Of a stretch of 64,000 nucleotides of DNA, positions 2,563 through 56,531 are shown one piece after another. The position numbers were made by a program, and so were the translations under genes. The DNA is taken from NCBI GenBank assembly GCA_027262695.1, contig GCA_027262695.1_4722.1; one strand, 5' to 3'. The notes under the pieces are model-generated. The model did not search any database, was not told the origin of the DNA, and was given only the letters and a program-made list of their open reading frames with translations. Origin of the DNA: a phage. The stretch's first letter is position 1. Each line of letters starts with the position of its first letter.

Positions 2563-3060
2563 CTACGCTGAGACCGCCTGCATGGATACGTACATGACAG
2601 GCTGCTTGCACTTTCATGCAAGAGGAGACTATATCAAACCGGCAGCTTCACCTTCTCGATCGTATCGAGAATGCGGTGCTGAAGTATTCTTCAGCAGCAC
2701 CTGCTACGGTAACCTACACTTCGAAGACGCTTGTCCTCTACAGGGTGGTAAATCCCTTAGTCGTTGAACCTGCGTTGTTTCCCATTCTTGGTTGCAAGAA
2801 TGCCGTATTACTACGCAACAACCAGGCTGCTGATTGCCCATTGTCTCGCACCTTAGCACCGCTTACGCGGCTTTTCTTTCAGCCTAAGCCTCTTACGGAG
2901 GTAGTGCATCTCAACTGTTGTTTCTGCCTTTCGGCACCCCATGGGTCGTTGAGCTTTAGGGGTTCCCAGCAATTCGTAGGTTTTTCAAGCACTCCCTTTC
3001 GGGAATACCGGACAACTTCCCTTGAAAAAAGTCTTTATTTTTCAAGGACTTATCCCCGCC
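2563..3060 (-). ncRNA. candidate group I self-splicing intron (boundaries approximate)
   Basis: Minus-strand core elements in canonical order: P AATTGCTGGGAA (2974-2963), Q AATCAGCAGCC (2835-2825), R GTTCAACGACTAAGGG (2769-2754), S GATATAGTCTCC (2635-2624); R GACTA pairs with S TAGTC (P7). No ORF >60 aa on this strand across ~600 bp between two long same-frame ORFs. Confidence 0.6.
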
Positions 3061-13554: not shown

Positions 13555-13570
13555 TATTCGCCGCATAGAA

Positions 13571-13602
13571 CCCTCCTCCAACCCGTAAGGGAAGGAGGAG
13601 GG
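13571..13602. terminator. bidirectional hairpin CCCTCCTCC-AACCCGTAAGGGAA-GGAGGAGGG
   Basis: Perfect 9-bp outer stem with inner CCC/GGG and GTAA loop between convergent genes. Confidence 0.6.
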
Positions 13603-14758: not shown

Positions 14759-15271
14759 TTAAACTTCTTCGTTTTCTGAACCTAATGATTCAGCATCTGG
14801 ATCGTCAACAGGAACGGTTGCATCAAAATACCGCTTCGTATGCGTGGTTGTGTACCCTACGCTATCCGTAATGGAAATCGTAAACGTCACTTCCCTTGCA
14901 CGTATTAAACGCAACTTGTTCATGAAGTTCCGAAAAGGCATGGATCCACGATTCAACTCCTTGATGACGTTTCCTCGAATGCTGGAAATGTCTTTATTCG
15001 TTTTATCGGGATGCCGTTTCTTCACGTCACGCATATGTCGGGTGATATACGAATTGAGCTGATTTGCGCCGATCCCTCTCTCCGTATAAATCTGCAACAA
15101 GAACTCCGTCAGGAAATCCTGTCTACCCGTAGGCGTCCAGAAGTTGTTACCGTGGTTATAGTTAGTCGCTCGTCCTCGATTACTTTGAGGATTTTCATCA
15201 TCGCTTTCGTCACGACGCTTAAGCGGATTAATGCGTGCGCGAAAAGAGACTTCGTTATATTTATCTATCAT
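14759..15271 (-). CDS. hypothetical basic protein
   Basis: ORF track 14759..15316; ATG 15271 overlaps stop of upstream gene in ATGA arrangement. Confidence 0.5.
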   Translation of the reverse strand: MIDKYNEVSFRARINPLKRRDESDDENPQSNRGRATNYNHGNNFWTPTGRQDFLTEFLLQIYTERGIGANQLNSYITRHMRDVKKRHPDKTNKDISSIRGNVIKELNRGSMPFRNFMNKLRLIRAREVTFTISITDSVGYTTTHTKRYFDATVPVDDPDAESLGSENEEV

Positions 15272-15783
15272 AGTACACCAGTGTATTGACTGAGTGCGAA
15301 GGTTAGGAGTTCGCAACAGTCTCTCGCTAGTTTCCTTGTTTTGCGTAATCCATAAGCCGCATCCAAATCGTCACGTTCCGCCAGCGCGTCTAACCACGTC
15401 GCAAGTATGCGTCCATACTCGATAACGTCACGCATGAGAACGTCGAACTGGATAACACGACCATCGGCATCAGCAAGCCAACGATTGAATGTAATTTGTG
15501 GTGCTAATATTGCATAGGTTCTCTCCTCTAATGTTATTATGTTTATGTTGCCTTCGTTATCGAACGCTTGATGCCAACGGCGTAGGTCAAGCATCAACGA
15601 CTCAGCATCCATATACCACAACGGTAAATACGTTTTACGTGCAACACGTATATCGTAGATGTTGTGAACCCAGGACGTTGTTTTATAGAGCAACAAGAGT
15701 TCGTTTAACCGTTGCCTATCATCTTGAAACGTCTTCCTTTTATAACGTTGGAAAGCACGCCTCAAGAAAAAGCGATGTAACAT
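15268..15783 (-). CDS. hypothetical protein
   Basis: 171-aa ORF, first gene of a minus-strand operon. Confidence 0.55.
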   Translation of the reverse strand: MLHRFFLRRAFQRYKRKTFQDDRQRLNELLLLYKTTSWVHNIYDIRVARKTYLPLWYMDAESLMLDLRRWHQAFDNEGNINIITLEERTYAILAPQITFNRWLADADGRVIQFDVLMRDVIEYGRILATWLDALAERDDLDAAYGLRKTRKLARDCCELLTFALSQYTGVL

Positions 15784-15851
15784 GGCATCACCTATGTATC
15801 ATTCTTGCAGGTATCAATGATACCGTCACAAGAAGGTAACGTTTTACGTCG

Positions 15852-15875
15852 CCTCCATGACTGTTATCATGGAGG
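15852..15875. promoter_or_regulatory. inverted repeat CCTCCATGA-n6-TCATGGAGG in divergent promoter region
   Basis: Perfect 9-bp arms between minus gene start (15783) and plus gene start (15918); followed by GGTAATATAG. Confidence 0.35.
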
Positions 15876-15917
15876 TAATATAGTCCTGATATTTTTTTCA
15901 ATACGGAGAATAGAATA

Positions 15918-26418: not shown

Positions 26419-26450
26419 CCCTCCTCCAACCCGTAAGGGAAGGAGGAGGG
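26419..26450. terminator. hairpin CCCTCCTCC-AACCCGTAAGGGAA-GGAGGAGGG followed by TATGCCGT and A12
   Basis: Same hairpin family as 13571; motif at 26452-26459. Confidence 0.6.
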
Positions 26451-28291: not shown

Positions 28292-28948
28292 TTAGCTTGC
28301 AGCTTCTTCATTTGTTTCAGGTTTGCTTCCCCCTAACAAACCGTCGAACAGACCCGTATGTTTCAGGTAGAAGAGAGCGATAGCGCCCATTGCTGCTGCG
28401 CTCGTCGCCGTTAATGCAACCCCTGCACGATACTGCCATTTACGGTCAGGCTTTTGATCAAGCGCCATACGACGCATGTATTCAGCCTCTGCTTCATTCC
28501 GATGAATTTCGGATTCGGCCAAGCGGGCTAAGGTATCGCGGTCAAGGTTATCATAACGTGCGTTCATGGTGGTTTCCTCTTGTTTGGAAGTTGATTGCTT
28601 GGTAGATTCTTGGTCAACAGTCGTTTCGGTTGGTTCAAACGGCTGGTTGTTCATTTTCTGATCTTTATTGGACATGATAGGCTCCTTCGATTTTTGAGAC
28701 GAAATTGATTTAAACCATCGTGGATGGCGGTATTCGGTTTTACATGTGCAGTTAAGTTTCTCGTGCAGGAAAGCGTAAAAACGTTTTGCGCCTACACGTA
28801 AGGCTTTCAGCATTACCCATCCACGAGCACTCAAACGGTGTAGCTGTTGCGGTATGTCGAGTTTCCTAGCCAAGCGAAAGTATCTTTCAATCACTTCGAT
28901 AGGAAACCATTGTTGTTCCACATCGGTGAGACTGAAAGTCTTATCCAT
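28292..28948 (-). CDS. hypothetical protein with C-terminal TM segment
   Basis: 218-aa ORF; hydrophobic GVALTATSAAAMGAIALFYL near C-terminus. Confidence 0.5.
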   Translation of the reverse strand: MDKTFSLTDVEQQWFPIEVIERYFRLARKLDIPQQLHRLSARGWVMLKALRVGAKRFYAFLHEKLNCTCKTEYRHPRWFKSISSQKSKEPIMSNKDQKMNNQPFEPTETTVDQESTKQSTSKQEETTMNARYDNLDRDTLARLAESEIHRNEAEAEYMRRMALDQKPDRKWQYRAGVALTATSAAAMGAIALFYLKHTGLFDGLLGGSKPETNEEAAS

Positions 28949-28979
28949 GATTGAAATCTCGCTGGCTTACTTCACTTAA

Positions 28980-28996
28980 GTAATATAGCCGTGAAA
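28980..28996 (+). promoter_or_regulatory. conserved 17-mer GTAATATAGCCGTGAAA (candidate promoter element)
   Basis: Identical 17-mer recurs at 43715-43731; the 9-nt core GTAATATAG recurs at 15875-15883. Confidence 0.35.
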
Positions 28997-29098
28997 AATG
29001 TTGGATTAAGTTAAATACCGCAACCGCAGCTAATTTTATAGGCTTTTAGCCTAAACCAATCATCTTCGGAATCATCATCTTTGAAACAGGAATCTATC

Positions 29099-40467: not shown

Positions 40468-40743
40468 TTATACGTCTTTTCTGTGCGCGTAGAACGCCTT
40501 CGTTCCGTTGTTGATCGCCTCAACCACATCCGGGGTTAACACAACGGCGATATCGCTTCGAGATGACGGTGCGTAATACCCTTCACCGTTCTCGGTAATC
40601 AGGCGATAACGGACTAAGCCTATGTTCGGTTCAACGCGTACCACTCTTTCGAGTTTGTACTTGATGATCTTCGTCAGGCCGATAGTCTCTGATGCGTAGA
40701 TGGCTTTATAAACTTTGTTCTTTGCTGTCGTTTTCATCAACAT
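40468..40743 (-). CDS. small hypothetical protein interleaved in paralog cluster
   Basis: ORF track 40468..40812; internal ATG 40743 chosen to limit overlap with paralog 1 (still 38 nt). Confidence 0.4.
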   Translation of the reverse strand: MLMKTTAKNKVYKAIYASETIGLTKIIKYKLERVVRVEPNIGLVRYRLITENGEGYYAPSSRSDIAVVLTPDVVEAINNGTKAFYAHRKDV

Positions 40744-41599
40744 GGTTTCTGTTTTCCTTGGTTTGTTGTGGTCCCAGGTCGGAGATATCCCAACGGATAT
40801 AACCAACATCACGGATTCGCTCGGCTGTTTCTTCGGATTGTGGATTACGACTGATAACCGGTAGCCATTCCCCTTCTCGGGTTATCTTAACTTCGGTGAT
40901 CTGTAAGCTCATGTTCCAACGAACGTCATAAACCAGCGCGTAACCAAGAGGATGAACAAGCCCATCTTGGTTATACATCTTCAAAAGACCTCTTACATCT
41001 TCGCTACGAAGTGATTTCATGGCTGGACGTACGCGTTGAAGTCTCTTTGTGATATCGTATCCCAACTTAATATCCTTCCAACCCGTCATGACGTAAGGAA
41101 CAACGTTGCGGCGACGGAGTTGATGGTTGTGAGTGGTTTCTTCGGCGGTAAGATGTACCCAACCGAGATCGCTGTACGCCACGAACCGCGCTCCTTCTCC
41201 ATCGAGCACTGTGTGCTCATCTAACGCTGCTGCAACACCATGGCCTGCGTAATACGACGGAAGAACGTTCAGCATTTTAATACGGCTTTCTTGACCGGTA
41301 TGGTCAGGGTCGATATGCGCGTAGTAATAATTACGGCTTACCGGACGACCTTCCGCCATACATCCACGGAAGACAGGGTCCTGCATTCCAAGCGGATGGT
41401 AATACGCGAGCTGTTGCTCGTCACCTTCCCCGATGACCAACAAACGATCTTCACGACTTGGTGTGCTAGGATCTTTCACCGTGATGTAGGTAACAATCAC
41501 TTTCAGATTGTCTAAAATGTCCTGTGGAAGTTTCTCTAAATCCCGTGCGTCGTAAATACGATTAACAACAACGTTTGCAATGTGTTTTGGTAAGCTCAT
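40706..41599 (-). CDS. member 1 of triplicated ~270-aa paralog family (unknown function)
   Basis: Shared motifs LAYYHPLGMQ, SDLGWVHL, HPLGYALVYDVRWN, GYIRWDISDL; unique C-terminal extension. Confidence 0.6.
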   Translation of the reverse strand: MSLPKHIANVVVNRIYDARDLEKLPQDILDNLKVIVTYITVKDPSTPSREDRLLVIGEGDEQQLAYYHPLGMQDPVFRGCMAEGRPVSRNYYYAHIDPDHTGQESRIKMLNVLPSYYAGHGVAAALDEHTVLDGEGARFVAYSDLGWVHLTAEETTHNHQLRRRNVVPYVMTGWKDIKLGYDITKRLQRVRPAMKSLRSEDVRGLLKMYNQDGLVHPLGYALVYDVRWNMSLQITEVKITREGEWLPVISRNPQSEETAERIRDVGYIRWDISDLGPQQTKENRNHVDENDSKEQSL

Positions 41600-41644
41600 T
41601 TTAGATCTCTCTTTGTTATCGGTAAAATAAATAACGGCATAAAT

Positions 41645-41660
41645 GGGACATAACTGTCCC
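41645..41660 (-). terminator. hairpin GGGACA-taac-TGTCCC followed on minus strand by TTTATGCCGTTATTTATTTT
   Basis: Between paralog 2 stop and paralog 1 start; motif at 41633-41642. Confidence 0.45.
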
Positions 41661-41679
41661 CGTGTTAAATATCAACTGT

Positions 41680-42522
41680 TCACGCTTTCAAGTCTGAAAT
41701 ATCCCAACGTACGTAACCTGTACGCTCAATGTCGTCAACCAGTCGCTCGGTTTGATTTTCAACGCCAACGACGGGCACCCAATTTAAACGCCAGCGTCCA
41801 CCGACATTAACCTCAACACGCTGCAGATCTTCATTCCAACAAACCCCATTCGGTCTCAAAAAGCCCATCGGATGGATGTAGTCCTCATCGTAATCTTTCA
41901 ATAGCGCGAGAATATCGCTTCGGCTATAAGTCTTCACGCTTGCTAGATGTACGCTTTGTAGCTTATCACGCAGACCCCAACCGTACTCACTATCACGCCA
42001 TTCAGGCATGACAACCGGCAGTACATTCCGATGACGGATGTATTTTGCCGCTTCAGCAATATCAGCTGGGAGATGTATCCAACCTAAATCGCTGTTAGCG
42101 ACAAAATCAGGACTATCCATTTCATGGATGTAACGATCGTAAAGCGTAGCAGCGAGTCCTTCAGCAAGCACGTTTGTTGGAAGGAGGCAGTTGGCGCTTA
42201 TCTTGAAATCGAATACATCGGCATCAGGATCCACGTATGCGTAAAACCCGCGCGCAAAAGCACCGCCATGCTCTTTGAAGTAGTATTGGAACACAGCGTT
42301 TTGCATTCCGATGGGGTGGTAGTAAGCCAACACACGTTGTTCGCCGTCCGTGATTTCAATGAGCCGATCTTTCGGCTTCGGCCAGGTGATCTTCTCAACA
42401 TCGCAAACGCTGACGATCTTTCGTAGATTCACCTTGATATGTTCCGGGAGATGCCCGATTTCATTTTCATGATAAACACGGGTGATGACGTGATGAATAA
42501 CAGATTGTGGTTTAGCTGTCAT
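41680..42522 (-). CDS. member 2 of triplicated paralog family
   Basis: LAYYHPIGMQ, SDLGWIHL, HPMGFLRPNGVCWN, GYVRWDISDL. Confidence 0.6.
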   Translation of the reverse strand: MTAKPQSVIHHVITRVYHENEIGHLPEHIKVNLRKIVSVCDVEKITWPKPKDRLIEITDGEQRVLAYYHPIGMQNAVFQYYFKEHGGAFARGFYAYVDPDADVFDFKISANCLLPTNVLAEGLAATLYDRYIHEMDSPDFVANSDLGWIHLPADIAEAAKYIRHRNVLPVVMPEWRDSEYGWGLRDKLQSVHLASVKTYSRSDILALLKDYDEDYIHPMGFLRPNGVCWNEDLQRVEVNVGGRWRLNWVPVVGVENQTERLVDDIERTGYVRWDISDLKA

Positions 42523-42554
42523 TTGACGTCTCCTTTTCGTTTGTTGGTGATGGT

Positions 42555-42854
42555 TTAGGGTTTAGGTTCCGTTTTGTATTGTGCGAGTAATGCGTTGATC
42601 TGCTCCCGTTGTTCTTTTAAGCATGTGGGAAGCTGGTCTTCCCGTACCGTTCCGATTTCCAACGTGATGTACCAACGTTGTTCGGAAGCCTGCCATTGAA
42701 AACTGCTCTGTAACCGAAGGATGTTGGGATCGCGTACCTTGCTTGCGCTGTAGCGATCGAACCAATCCAGATAAGCGGCTTTTCCTTCCTCGTCGGCAAC
42801 GTAACGCTGCACGCTGTTCTTGCCTTTGTTCTCGTATCCCGTGATGCGGATCAT
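42555..42854 (-). CDS. small hypothetical protein interleaved in paralog cluster
   Basis: ORF track 42555..42908; ATG 42854 overlaps stop of paralog 3 in ATGA arrangement. Confidence 0.45.
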   Translation of the reverse strand: MIRITGYENKGKNSVQRYVADEEGKAAYLDWFDRYSASKVRDPNILRLQSSFQWQASEQRWYITLEIGTVREDQLPTCLKEQREQINALLAQYKTEPKP

Positions 42855-43627
42855 GCGAACGTTTCTCCTGTAACGTGTTGCGGATAGCGTAGCATGGTAA
42901 CATCCCATTGTACGAATCCCTGCTGTTGGAGTTGTTGCATAACCGCTTCAACGTCTTGTCCTGGATGCGCAACCGGCAACCAACGTGTATCCAGCACCTT
43001 CGCTTCAAGGCGGGCTTTGCGCTTGTTCCAACGTACCTCGCTGATCCATGCGAAGCCAAGCGGATGCACCACCTGCGGGTAATGCACGCGCAGCAGGTTC
43101 TTCATCCGGCGAAGGATTGCAAGCCTGGCGTCAAGCGCGTATGGTTTCACCTGGTTAAGCTTGCGGGTGTAATACGTTCCCACGGTTTGGTTCGCCCAAC
43201 CAGGAAGCGCATGATGGGACCCAGCCTGCAATGTATTGTCCCCGTTCGTCTTCAACCAACCGTATTGCCCTGCCGCACGTCCTTTCTCATGTTCAACTTG
43301 TACCAGCTGATCGATGAACGAAGCATCAACGATACCGTGATCCACCTCATCCAACGCATAGCGCACCACCAACCCGCTCGCGCTCATCCGTGCGGGATGC
43401 TGGCTCCGATGCGCGTACCAAACCCTATTAACATGCAGCCGAGAAGGATACGTGTGTGCGCCACGCCAAAACACTTTTCCGAGAACACGTTCTCCACAGT
43501 ACACCATCACCCCTTTGTGATCGATTAGGTAATCCAACACCTTCATGCATTCCGCTTTGATGCTATCCGGTAATGCTAAGTATTCCTCTTCGGTGAACAC
43601 GGTATCAAAAATGATTTCATCGCTCAT
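42851..43627 (-). CDS. member 3 of triplicated paralog family (most divergent)
   Basis: HPLGFAWISEVRWN and GFVQWDVTML align with members 1 and 2. Confidence 0.55.
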   Translation of the reverse strand: MSDEIIFDTVFTEEEYLALPDSIKAECMKVLDYLIDHKGVMVYCGERVLGKVFWRGAHTYPSRLHVNRVWYAHRSQHPARMSASGLVVRYALDEVDHGIVDASFIDQLVQVEHEKGRAAGQYGWLKTNGDNTLQAGSHHALPGWANQTVGTYYTRKLNQVKPYALDARLAILRRMKNLLRVHYPQVVHPLGFAWISEVRWNKRKARLEAKVLDTRWLPVAHPGQDVEAVMQQLQQQGFVQWDVTMLRYPQHVTGETFA

Positions 43628-43639
43628 GGATAAAGTTCC

Positions 43640-44075
43640 TTGTTTTCACGTTGTTTGATTAACGTATTGATTTCTGATGATGATAACATCGATATGTTTG
43701 CTGTTATCAAGAAGGTAATATAGCCGTGAAAGGATTTGTATTACAGAAAGGATATTTGTTTTTAAGAAGGGACGATGGTTATCAGGAAGGAGGTTATCGG
43801 TAGGTGTAGGAGAGGGGATTTCAAGGAAGGTTTAAGAGGATAGTTATGTTGTTTAGTTGAGAGTTTGCTAAAATAGCTTTATCGTTATCTTAGTTTATCT
43901 GTGTATTCGTTAGGTATCTTGATTTATCTTCTTAATGATCTTTTCAAAAGTGTTATCATGGTTATCTTAGGTTATGTCTTAATTGTTTTATCTTGGTATG
44001 TTTAAGTTGTTTTAAGTTATCTGTTTATCTATCTTGTTATCTTGTTTAAGTTGTTAATGGCTTATCTTCAAAACA
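43640..44075. repeat. AT-rich non-coding region with purine-rich (A/G)GAAGG repeats (about 43700-43850) and at least 8 TATCTT iterons (about 43880-44070)
   Basis: No credible ORF; copies such as GTTATCTTAG, GGTATCTTGA, TTTATCTTCT, GGTTATCTTAGG, TTTATCTTGG, GCTTATCTTC; TGTTTAAGTTGTT twice. Confidence 0.6.
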
Positions 44076-44085
44076 ATGGATAACA

Positions 44086-44131
44086 TGTGTTTACTACGCT
44101 CGTTGAGTTATAACTCAACGGTAACACATGT
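44086..44131. promoter_or_regulatory. composite palindrome: perfect 20-bp CGTTGAGTTATAACTCAACG flanked by inverted ACATGTGTT / AACACATGT
   Basis: 44101-44120 is its own reverse complement; flanking arms extend the dyad imperfectly. Confidence 0.45.
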
Positions 44132-44535
44132 CATCTGTGCATTACACTACGTTACATGCTTATCAACGTTTTGTGAAGACAAAACGTTCAACTCTAAAAA
44201 ACCATTTGTGATACTCTTCTTCACGTTGTTCATCAGAGTATCTCGTCTATCCTCACTGCGTTCGCATACGACATCACCGTTATACGCTAACGCTACGCTT
44301 ATAGCTTATAACTCTAAGGATAAAAACATAAACTCGCTTCGCTCGTTTAGTTTTTCTTTTTCTTAGAGTTATCATGTTGCTCGTCTCTAAAGGACTTCGC
44401 TCCTCCCCCGTCCCCCGAAGGGGCCGAGGTCGTGGAAATTTTACTTTCCAAATACATTTACAACGTCTGTAAACTTTTACCGACACATACCTAATCTTAT
44501 ATTTAAAATTAGAAAAAGAGAAAATACGAACATAA

Positions 44536-44566
44536 CCCTCCTCCAACCCGGAAGGGAAGGAGGAGG
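44536..44566 (-). terminator. hairpin CCCTCCTCC-AACCCGGAAGGGAA-GGAGGAGG
   Basis: Same family as 13571; after stop of 44585..45478; followed on minus strand by TTATGTTCGTATTTT. Confidence 0.6.
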
Positions 44567-44584
44567 TGATAACAGTCTATTTAA

Positions 44585-45478
44585 TTAATCGGAAGTGTTA
44601 TAACCGAATACTGCTTTACCGTAGGTGTGAGTACCATCACTGAGTGACAATACTAATACGTGGTTATACGCATCGTTAACACCCTTGTCGGTAGAATCGG
44701 TGGTAACACCGTTGTAGACAAAGGTAGCTGATTGCAGATTGGTTTTCAGTTCATTGATGATATCATCACTTACACCAGTCTGCTCTTTAATCAGAGTAGT
44801 CAGGTTACCTGCTAAGCTTGCGTCGAGATTTACTTCGTTGCCAGTAATAGCTTGTAAACCTGAAGCGTAAGTACTGAAGTCTAACGGATAGGTTAACAGA
44901 CGTGCTGACGTTTTGGTACCATTGCCTTCATCAACGTAGGTTAAGTTACCCAGGTTGGTAACCTTGATAATGTTAGACAGATCCAGCGTTGTGTTATAAA
45001 CTTTAACTTGAACAGAACCATACCAAGCCAACGAATCTTCTTTGGCTTCCAGGGTAACGGTTTGGATACCTGACTGATCAAAGGTAACGGGATTAGATAA
45101 CGTTTCAGCTTTGATGTCTTTTGTTTTATCCAGGAACTTCTCGCCGGAAGGCGTAACCATACCGTAGCGTTGAGCTACGAGGTCGACCACGTCACCGATG
45201 GTGGTGTTTGCTTCAACACTAACGCGCACCGCGATCTTCTGGAACCATTTAGCCAGATCCAGACGATGATAGGTGACATCGCGGGTATTGAAGTACGGTG
45301 TACCATCACCCGGACTGAGTGTTAATGTTGCTGCACTATCAGAATCGCTTTTGGATTTAAGAACGTATTTGAGATCAGTGTATTTGAAACTGGCTCCCGT
45401 ATCGGCGTTAAGCTGGTTGATCTCATCAACGATAAGTTGCCACGGTGTTTTCAAAGTAAGTGATACTCGACTTGACAT
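44585..45478 (-). CDS. structural-region paralog family member A (YYDR-YG-LAWTGSV family)
   Basis: VTYHRLDL, LVAQRYGMV, LAWYGSVQV. Confidence 0.55.
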   Translation of the reverse strand: MSSRVSLTLKTPWQLIVDEINQLNADTGASFKYTDLKYVLKSKSDSDSAATLTLSPGDGTPYFNTRDVTYHRLDLAKWFQKIAVRVSVEANTTIGDVVDLVAQRYGMVTPSGEKFLDKTKDIKAETLSNPVTFDQSGIQTVTLEAKEDSLAWYGSVQVKVYNTTLDLSNIIKVTNLGNLTYVDEGNGTKTSARLLTYPLDFSTYASGLQAITGNEVNLDASLAGNLTTLIKEQTGVSDDIINELKTNLQSATFVYNGVTTDSTDKGVNDAYNHVLVLSLSDGTHTYGKAVFGYNTSD

Positions 45479-45514
45479 TTTTTTACCTCGATGGTTGTTA
45501 CATCACTCTCAAAA

Positions 45515-56484: not shown

Positions 56485-56499
56485 ACACGGCAAACATAA

Positions 56500-56531
56500 C
56501 CCTCCTCCAACCCATCAGGGAAGGAGGAGGG
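56500..56531. terminator. hairpin CCCTCCTCC-AACCCATCAGGGAA-GGAGGAGGG followed by TATGCCGT
   Basis: Same family; motif at 56534-56541. Confidence 0.6.

Follow-up and report, generated by a model that had tools for sequence, protein, structure and literature searches.

In phage T7 (at its primary origin) and in phage T4 (at oriF and oriG), a promoter lies beside an AT-rich stretch within a single-copy non-coding locus; the iterons of plasmids and lambdoid phages, of 17–22 bp, are regularly spaced beside or inside the initiator gene, and the PeSL cassettes of T4-type phages join a conserved early promoter and a stem-loop at the border of variable small early genes. Closer to the present case, the early genes of the Chimalliviridae are transcribed by a multisubunit RNA polymerase carried in the virion (PMC7598289), and the early promoters of jumbo phages encoding RNA polymerases have a conserved AT-rich motif of ~10 nucleotides (nt) (PMC7598289) and are detectable by sequence analysis alone (PMC7598289; PMC11512511). 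In nucleus-forming phages, sRNA005 of 201phi2-1 and its phiKZ counterpart have also been described as conserved structured RNAs of intergenic or leader location (PMC11512511). Here, we describe a gap of 957 bp (43628–44584), flanked by two minus-strand genes, in a stretch of 64,000 nt of phage DNA (assembly GCA_027262695.1, contig GCA_027262695.1_4722.1) that was analysed in its full length and is called the window throughout. With a confidence that is about evenly balanced, we read this gap as a composite transcription-control region on the minus strand, whose strongly conserved core of 286 nt is likely a stable non-coding RNA.

The only match to this region among 50,697 phage records was Escherichia phage vB_EcoM_Goslar (NC_048170; Chimalliviridae), the Escherichia coli model for nucleus-forming jumbo phages, with which the window is collinear at 85–95% identity (window 26442 corresponds to Goslar 17 by blastn), and we take the window phage to be a jumbo phage of E. 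coli that is Goslar-like and nucleus-forming. In this genome, gaps are typically ~50 bp long, and a preliminary description of the window had noted about 950 bp here without a credible open reading frame (ORF), which holds, with 957 bp between the start at 43627 and the stop at 44585, both on the minus strand. The matching gap in Goslar (14,972–15,825) carries no annotation, and Goslar-like genomes all keep a gap at this place, of 830–920 bp or more. The Goslar RNA-seq paper (10.1101/2023.09.20.558163; 5–60 min after infection) describes only gene-level results, and our literature searches found no description of this locus, nor of Goslar promoters or a promoter consensus, non-coding RNAs or a replication origin.

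Relatives were collected through the homologue of Goslar gp022, of which public assemblies gave ~70 (mostly 77–97% identical, with a few near 50%), and these, plus pattern scans of IMG/VR and metagenomes, yielded 21 distinct gap sequences. Read along the minus strand, the parts follow in the order of terminator, 286-nt core, optional hairpins, A/T-rich spacer, promoter with its 5' hairpin, and early operon, with the core and its immediate upstream flank laid out as follows:

44485–44500, minus strand: block ATAAGATTArGTA, directly upstream of the core and conserved in 21 of 21 sequences.
44481–44196, probably minus strand: the core, 286 nt, hairpin-rich, a candidate non-coding RNA.
44474–44456, 44450–44433, 44429–44406 (with a cUUCGg loop) and 44405–44390, minus sense: predicted core helices.
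44372–44308 (with a GCGAAGC apex) and 44242–44210 (with an invariant 17-nt loop), minus sense: further predicted core helices.
44302–44245, minus strand: variable region of the core, which varies without a consistent fold.
44201–44196, minus strand: U-run at the 3' edge of the core, 9 nt after the last helix.

The conservation pattern of this core was observed directly in the alignments. Among 14 genomes aligned over 6.9 kb, its two 100-nt bins had 98% mean pairwise identity and 95–96% invariant columns, making it the most conserved 200 nt of the whole alignment, in which no coding bin exceeded 87% invariant columns. Compared with the window, the core is 96.5–97.2% identical in genome pairs whose adjacent gene keeps only 59–78% identity at its four-fold degenerate sites, corresponding to a rate ~10 times slower than that of these neighbouring sites, and across the 21 genomes the core keeps 96–98% identity, with only 31 of 290 columns varying. 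The conservation also begins and ends abruptly, at a possible closing helix of UAAAA with UUUUA. To judge from these comparisons, almost every base of the core is under purifying selection, and that the core is functional appears well supported. The preliminary description had delimited its feature to 43640–44075, and the repeats that it reported do lie inside those limits, but the only strongly constrained part (44196–44481) falls outside them.

Outside this group of phages the core was not encountered: a comparison with 5,426 E. coli genomes and 72,556 plasmids gave no match, blastn against the phage records returned only Goslar, and exact-pattern scans of IMG/VR and metagenomes returned only Goslar-like genomes. 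The upstream ATAAGATTArGTA block is separated from the core by 12 nt that occur in two forms, has no recurrence elsewhere in Goslar or the window, and could be a promoter or the 5' flank of the putative core transcript.

It could be argued instead that nothing acts in this gap beyond a terminator and a promoter, the repeated words of its A/T-rich tract being by-products of slippage and duplication and the core having spread recently by recombination. Window–Goslar pairwise identity is indeed a mosaic, with many 250-nt stretches at 99–100%, and the tract shows local duplications and many indels and can be lost. We nevertheless consider this explanation unlikely, since the core is near-identical in 21 of 21 genomes while both flanks diverge, the few changes in helix 44429–44406 preserve pairing, and a sweep would need to have halted, in each lineage, at one identical pair of boundaries. 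The remarkable point is the island common to all genomes with these same two boundaries, and not the pairwise identity alone.

Turning to the structure of the core, about seven hairpins are predicted, and both strands fold well past the level of shuffled controls (minus strand, z = −3.7; plus strand, z = −4.5), so that the folding test cannot separate the two. The predicted pairs are nearly fixed, 75 of 84 never varying, and compensatory series are confined to one helix, 44429–44406, where the pair 44428:44407 runs through C-G, U.G and U-A and the neighbouring pair through U.G and C-G. In relative L030, this same helix has its UUCG loop (44416–44419) replaced by the reverse complement CGAA, and its internal G.A mismatch becomes U-A. 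We infer that the core is transcribed and that its RNA would be read from the minus strand, on which we find the cUUCGg loop, the U-run at the 3' edge, and the orientation common to all neighbouring genes; in addition, the G.U pairs in helix 44429–44406 and in the long hairpin that follows the core (44135–44079) work only on the minus strand, this hairpin having one such pair in the window and a second in L008, where A-U has become G.U.

Several points weigh against a minus-strand RNA within a transcription-control region, and we suggest keeping them in mind. Covariation is thin, because the core hardly varies; the plus strand, as mentioned above, also folds well, and when the plus-strand fold is paired by hand, the CU/UC swap can be placed equally in an alternative helix of that strand. 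A count of G.U pairs was tried as a way of choosing the strand and left it undecided (67 and 49 G.U-to-mismatch cells for the two strands' own folds), because each strand's fold has G.U pairs that are mismatched on the other strand. No promoter of the core was recognised, the upstream block being non-recurrent in Goslar or the window and sigma-70-like sites standing at chance level (5 versus 3.9 expected). The invariant loops and linkers suit sequence-specific recognition of DNA as well as of RNA, and, outside the core, most relatives retain TATCTT words in the A/T-rich tract in spite of its indels, which may mean that the spacer is not wholly neutral.

Among known RNA families, Rfam 15 gave no credible match up to E = 10 in 42500–45500, its gathering scores left a group I intron at 2605–3037 as the sole match in the whole window, and no tRNA or tmRNA was found. 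The core is not a coding sequence either, given its frame-breaking indels, among them one of 1 nt at 44305 that breaks the long ORFs, and the lack of a ribosome-binding site. This bears on whether the gap conceals one or more small protein genes, which we regard as very improbable. ORFs are present, namely 44076–44366 on the plus strand (96 amino acids (aa), the longest in the gap), 44347–44457 on the minus strand (36 aa) and 44374–44472 on the plus strand (32 aa); however, the frame of the longest is broken in relatives, by indels of 16, 16 and 1 nt in Goslar, the 32-aa ORF is without a start codon in Goslar-type genomes, and the intact 36-aa ORF is without a ribosome-binding site, of which nearly all window genes have a clear one. 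In sum, no ORF in 43628–44584 has a ribosome-binding site, and none is conserved in frame.

Two optional hairpins lie downstream of the core:

44165–44188, strand not assigned: optional hairpin of 10 bp with a 4-nt loop, −10.2 kcal/mol.
44079–44135, minus strand: long hairpin with a 13-bp outer stem and a nested 10-bp palindrome (44101–44120), −25.9 kcal/mol.

The shorter one is found in the window, L011 and L016 and is absent from the other relatives, its loop being CTTC in the window and GAAG in L011 and L016. The stem of the longer one is invariant in 17 relatives, with a tip in three indel forms, while the whole hairpin is absent from L007, L030 and L032 and is thus dispensable. The loop inversions, both in hairpin 44165–44188 and in the core loop of L030, are a signature of template switching at palindromes during DNA replication.

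GCGAAGC is known as an unusually stable DNA mini-hairpin, and its place at the apex of the longest core helix, together with the loop inversions just described and with loops and linkers as conserved as the stems, makes a DNA-level role of the core a serious rival to an RNA, even if a rather unlikely one. Its hairpins would then form while the DNA is single-stranded or supercoiled, and the core, with the AT-rich tract in an accessory part, could serve for priming or initiation, signal packaging, or offer a complex of phage proteins a place to dock. In its favour are the single copy per genome, the extreme conservation including loops and linkers, the good folding of both strands, the recurrence of the GCGAAGC apex in variants, and the inversions (UUCG to CGAA in L030; CTTC to GAAG at 44165–44188), which show hairpin behaviour in DNA replication. 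Against it, the core is absent from L009, which means that it does not serve a family-wide core function at this position, the G.U-dependent pairs favour RNA, and the analysis identified no protein partner. A packaging site in particular loses ground because the Goslar genome is circularly permuted (PMC6563267) and its large terminase gene (189.5–191.8 kb) lies ~175 kb from the locus; a headful pac site was rejected for the same two reasons and for the dispensability of the repeated words.

Whichever strand or molecule is concerned, the core could represent a new kind of cis- or trans-acting element of Goslar-like nucleus-forming phages, although we hold this further step to be unlikely. As a DNA signal, such an element could be an origin, a priming site, or a device of genome handling in the vesicle-to-nucleus pathway, and as a structured RNA it could target the machinery of the host or of the phage, with translation, RNA export and counter-defence as examples. 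For this family, no element of either kind has been defined so far.

At the tip of the longest core hairpin, the 18-mer AACGAGCGAAGCGAGTTT (44329–44346, minus sense) holds the GCGAAGC mini-hairpin with tandem G.A flanks. Exact copies are found in 24 IMG/VR loci that have no relation to Goslar (L034–L057), ~17 of them independent; 176-kb contigs and one of 285 kb are represented, as is a giant-virus bin whose three copies lie 265 nt apart. These copies are mostly intergenic, often between A- and T-runs and with other GCGAAGC-like hairpins nearby, and their orientation relative to genes is mixed; the 18-mer looks like a widespread, very stable hairpin motif. A second side observation concerns the invariant loop, where the 11-mer AACAACGTGAA (minus strand) lies at 44220–44230 and again in the leader of the first early gene at 43645–43655, just before the ribosome-binding site, with AACGTGAA retained at both places in all relatives, which may reflect a shared binding site or a chance match.

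The other parts of the transcription-control region that we favour lie towards the two ends of the gap, and with the adjoining genes they are as follows:

44585–45478, minus strand: upstream virion-protein gene, Goslar gp022 homologue, DUF7941, 85% identity.
44537–44566, minus strand: intrinsic terminator of the gp022 homologue, hairpin plus T-rich tail, −23.5 kcal/mol.
43740–43850, minus strand: GGAAGG zone, C/T-rich and almost G-free, with conserved blocks ACCTTCCTTGAAA and CCCTTCTTAAAA.
43702–43743, minus strand: putative virion-RNA-polymerase early promoter, TAATACAAATCCTTTCACGGCTATATTACCTTCTTGATAA, with its core CTATATTAC at 43723–43715.
43680–43709, minus strand: predicted 5' hairpin of the early transcript, TGATAACA/TGTTATCA, from the fold and like the hairpins after other Goslar copies.
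43628–43679, minus strand: 5' leader with the ribosome-binding site AAGGAA of the first early gene, conserved blocks GAAATCAATACGTT and AACGTGAA.
42851–43627, minus strand: first early gene, Goslar gp021 homologue, 61% protein identity, 258 aa, no family match.

The recurrence and the orientation of the promoter motif were likewise observed directly. Where the preliminary description had offered a cluster of early promoters as an alternative, we found a single site of the early-promoter type (43736–43713, minus strand), so that the promoter stands while the cluster does not. With a matrix derived from 10 Goslar sites, it reaches 48 bits, and 20 shuffles yielded no match. The window has exactly three copies of the core CTATATTAC, all of them on the minus strand, intergenic and upstream of minus-strand genes, and in the complete Goslar genome 13 of 13 copies of CTA[TC]ATTAC are on the minus strand. 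Ten Goslar copies, which precede blocks of small minus-strand genes of unknown function, share the ~40-nt consensus TAAT..TTTCACGgCTAyATTACyTnnnTGA, and each of the ten is followed by a short hairpin within ~10 nt. In the window, the matrix picks out exactly three sites (43723, 28988 and 15883), all of them intergenic minus-strand sites scoring above 40 bits; the test is partly circular, because two of the 10 Goslar sites are orthologues of window sites. In IMG/VR, the exact promoter 17-mer is nearly confined to three Goslar-like contigs with 3–4 copies each, the one further match being on a 42-kb contig, and the gap alignment holds the invariant block TCCTTTCACGGCTATATTACCT.

We take minus-strand positions 43743–43702 for the early promoter that serves the gp021 block, because they match the literature description of jumbo-phage early promoters; the motif would thus be a promoter of the virion RNA polymerase, assuming that the small genes downstream of its copies are early. 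Its transcripts are predicted to start ~10 nt downstream of CTACATTAC, at ~15,050 on the minus strand of Goslar and at ~43,705 in the window, and the hairpins that follow the promoter copies suggest a conserved 5' stem-loop on early transcripts. The two further window copies lie at 15862–15903 and 28967–29008, on the minus strand, upstream of the genes 15268–15783 and 28292–28948. In L004/L007 (IMGVR_UViG_3300011560_000001), at about window 43715, the promoter core is doubled, with CTATATTACCTTCATGATGC present twice and a 43-nt palindromic insert between the copies.

On the other side of the gap, the terminator hairpin (44566–44537) lies 19 nt past the stop codon of the gp022 homologue, and among relatives its stem changes on both sides in a compensatory manner, from CCTCC/GGAGG to CTTCC/GGAAG. 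It belongs to a family of near-identical C/T-rich hairpins in the window (13569–13601, 26419–26449, 44534–44566 and 56493–56530), of 31–38 nt and 92–97% identical. Both the promoter and the terminator are well supported. As a side observation, the independent short-read contigs L017 and L019 both end ~46 nt after the gp022 stop codon, probably because the terminator repeat breaks assembly. Every relative has kept the promoter site, even the distant L009 with a flanking protein of only 50% identity, in which it comes directly after the terminator, the two being ~40 nt apart with nothing between, and because L009 has neither core nor spacer at this place, we regard these two together as an insertion specific to Goslar-like phages.

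The left part of the gap had been described as rich in GGAAGG words, and the excess is real: in 43700–43850 there are 4 copies of [AG]GAAGG versus 0.5 expected (reached in 1 of 2000 shuffles) and 7 of AAGG versus 2.1 expected (0 of 2000). Part of it comes from GTGAAAGGATTTGTATTAC, which is the upstream half of the promoter read on the opposite strand, and from a partial tandem copy of this upstream half with a 20-nt period (43734–43772). The zone carries a 29-nt insert in some relatives only, and its plus-strand GC skew goes up to +0.85. Within this insert, GATAACCTCCTTCC (43786–43800, minus strand) resembles the 3' end of E. coli 16S rRNA (GATCACCTCCTTA), and if transcribed it could pair with ribosome-binding sites.

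Between these C/T-rich blocks and the long hairpin lies the tract that had first drawn attention to the locus:

43880–44075, plus strand: TATCTT zone, an A/T-rich spacer with local duplications and indel-filled alignments.

The repeats themselves are directly observed. At least 8 copies of TATCTT had been claimed, and 8 were found on the plus strand (43886, 43915, 43925, 43963, 43989, 44030, 44038 and 44063), versus 0.7 ± 0.8 expected, a count reached in none of 2000 dinucleotide-preserving shuffles of 43880–44075; TTATC has 10 copies versus 0.96 expected from local shuffles, and the duplicated word TGTTTAAGTTGTT is also borne out by exact copies at 43999 and 44043. The cluster is unique: neither in the 64-kb window nor in the complete Goslar genome of 237 kb does the next-densest 250-nt stretch hold more than 2 copies. 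The AT-richness was equally well seen, with a guanine-plus-cytosine (GC) content of 23–33% over 43640–44060, and of 23–28% over 43880–44060, versus ~46% for the window, and 43640–44060 is strongly strand-asymmetric, its plus strand being rich in G and T. What does not stand is a regular array: the true unit is the 7–8-nt word kTTATCTTr, present in 13 loose copies (on the plus strand; AAGATAA on the minus strand) with spacings of 6, 10, 19, 10, 29, 9, 26, 29, 8, 4, 8 and 25 nt.

Among 20 relatives, the spacer between core and promoter measures 122–479 nt and holds 0–8 AAGATA words, the tract of the window being the largest, so the spacer appears to grow and shrink by local duplication and deletion. 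In L030, the U-run of the core is joined straight to the equivalent of window 43870, by a deletion between two TTTTAG repeats that has removed the long hairpin and the whole tract and kept the core, the C/T-rich blocks and the promoter. The word tract is therefore expendable, which is a matter of direct observation in this natural variant.

These results bear on the replication origin that the preliminary description had placed at 43880–44070, in which the TATCTT words would be iterons for a phage initiator and the adjacent AT-rich DNA the unwinding region. The word cluster is single in the genome, the DNA beside it has the low GC content already given, and the adjoining promoter could activate the locus, as in the T7 and T4 origins, where a promoter adjoins the origin and could activate it. 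Nevertheless, an iteron origin here seems improbable: the words are only 7–8 nt long, with spacings of 4–29 nt and no fixed period, their number ranges from 0 to 8 among the 20 relatives, the tract is deleted in L030, and L009, with the same flanking genes, is without it. The neighbouring 258-aa protein showed no sign of being an initiator, with no Pfam, PHROG or PDB match, an unreliable AlphaFold model (predicted local distance difference test (pLDDT) of 57) and no Foldseek match below E = 0.6, and the Goslar DNA polymerase and helicase genes lie 30–65 kb away. GC skew, which had been put forward as a check, tracks gene orientation and is uninformative on an origin.

Three other readings of the words were tried and rejected. 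DnaA boxes did not fit by eye, the TTATC words being without the CACA half of TTATCCACA, and the best candidate, TTATCCATT at 44076–44084, with 7 of 9 positions matching, was also rejected by eye. GATAAC/GTTATC as a genome-wide regulatory word shows 100 copies versus 36 expected from dinucleotide shuffles of the whole window, the excess coming mostly from the in-gene codon pairs GAT-AAC (sense) and GTT-ATC (antisense reading). Finally, a tandem array of the ToxI antitoxin-RNA type was discarded, there being no regular units of 34–36 nt and no adjacent nuclease gene.

Coming back to a composite control region on the minus strand, its parts would work in the following order. The terminator hairpin would end transcription of the late virion-protein gene, and the core would give a stable non-coding RNA of ~290 nt on the minus strand, from ~44481 to the U-run at 44201–44196 (~15,440–15,725 in Goslar). 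Next would come the two optional hairpins and a nonessential A/T-rich spacer with AAGATAA words, and the C/T-rich zone would lead into a single early promoter of the virion-RNA-polymerase type, from which the early transcript would open with its 5' hairpin and continue into highly variable small early genes.

Several observations were made beside these. The gene content downstream of the early promoter (compare window 40700–43627) differs among L010–L021, with sets of, for example, 250+298+280 aa, 260+96+284 aa, or 260+99+91+133 aa, and the first protein after the promoter has 40–78% identity across most relatives; the conserved core marks the border between a stable structural module and a highly variable early-gene block. 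Near-complete Goslar-like genomes, as contigs of 180–245 kb, are found within NCBI assemblies labelled Salmonella enterica, Shigella and E. coli (the records include GCA_007261085.1 and GCA_009290805.1), and their presence in isolate assemblies suggests carry-over or a carrier state of lytic jumbo phages. Elsewhere in the window, the group I intron (Rfam RF00028, 58 bits, 2605–3037, minus strand) is the counterpart of the annotated Goslar intron at 211,817–212,245, adjoining an RNA polymerase subunit gene, and explains why there are few ORFs at the start of the window. Outside the window, Goslar has a second unannotated gap of ~820 bp (82,470–83,288), flanked by gp070 and by a NUMOD1/HNH endonuclease gene adjoining a DNA polymerase fragment.

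What has been gained from this locus is a set of leads, namely an early-promoter consensus, a single-copy and near-invariant structured element of 286 nt, and a natural deletion variant that marks the expendable part. Should the core turn out to have a defined role, as RNA or as DNA signal, it would give a new way into the question of how early infection is organised in these phages; otherwise, the locus would be an ordinary promoter–terminator region with a repeat-rich spacer.

Compared with the systems described at the outset, the promoter is the part with the clearest likeness, given that in phiKZ, 201phi2-1 and AR9, as in the window, a conserved AT-rich motif recurs upstream of small-gene operons. 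The Goslar consensus tTTCACGgCTAyATTACyTnnnTGA was in contrast derived here, is known from sequence, and had no published version that we could find, and the promoter covers only ~120 of the 957 bp, whereas other early-promoter gaps of Goslar measure 110–210 bp in all. The small RNAs of 201phi2-1 and phiKZ are shorter than 250 nt, come from 5' leaders and were found by transcript mapping, while the Goslar core, set against sRNA005, has 286 nt, lies upstream of the promoter, is limited to Goslar-like phages, and is known from its sequence. With the transcription-activated origins of T7 and T4 the locus shares a promoter adjoining an AT-rich tract in a single-copy non-coding place, but here the promoter points away from the tract, which is dispensable in L030. 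With the iterons of plasmids and lambdoid phages it shares words beside AT-rich DNA, but these are of 7–8 nt, irregular and variable in number, with no initiator found. Finally, the Goslar promoter and its stem-loop, bordering a variable early block, resemble the PeSL cassettes of T4-type phages, with a different polymerase in charge.

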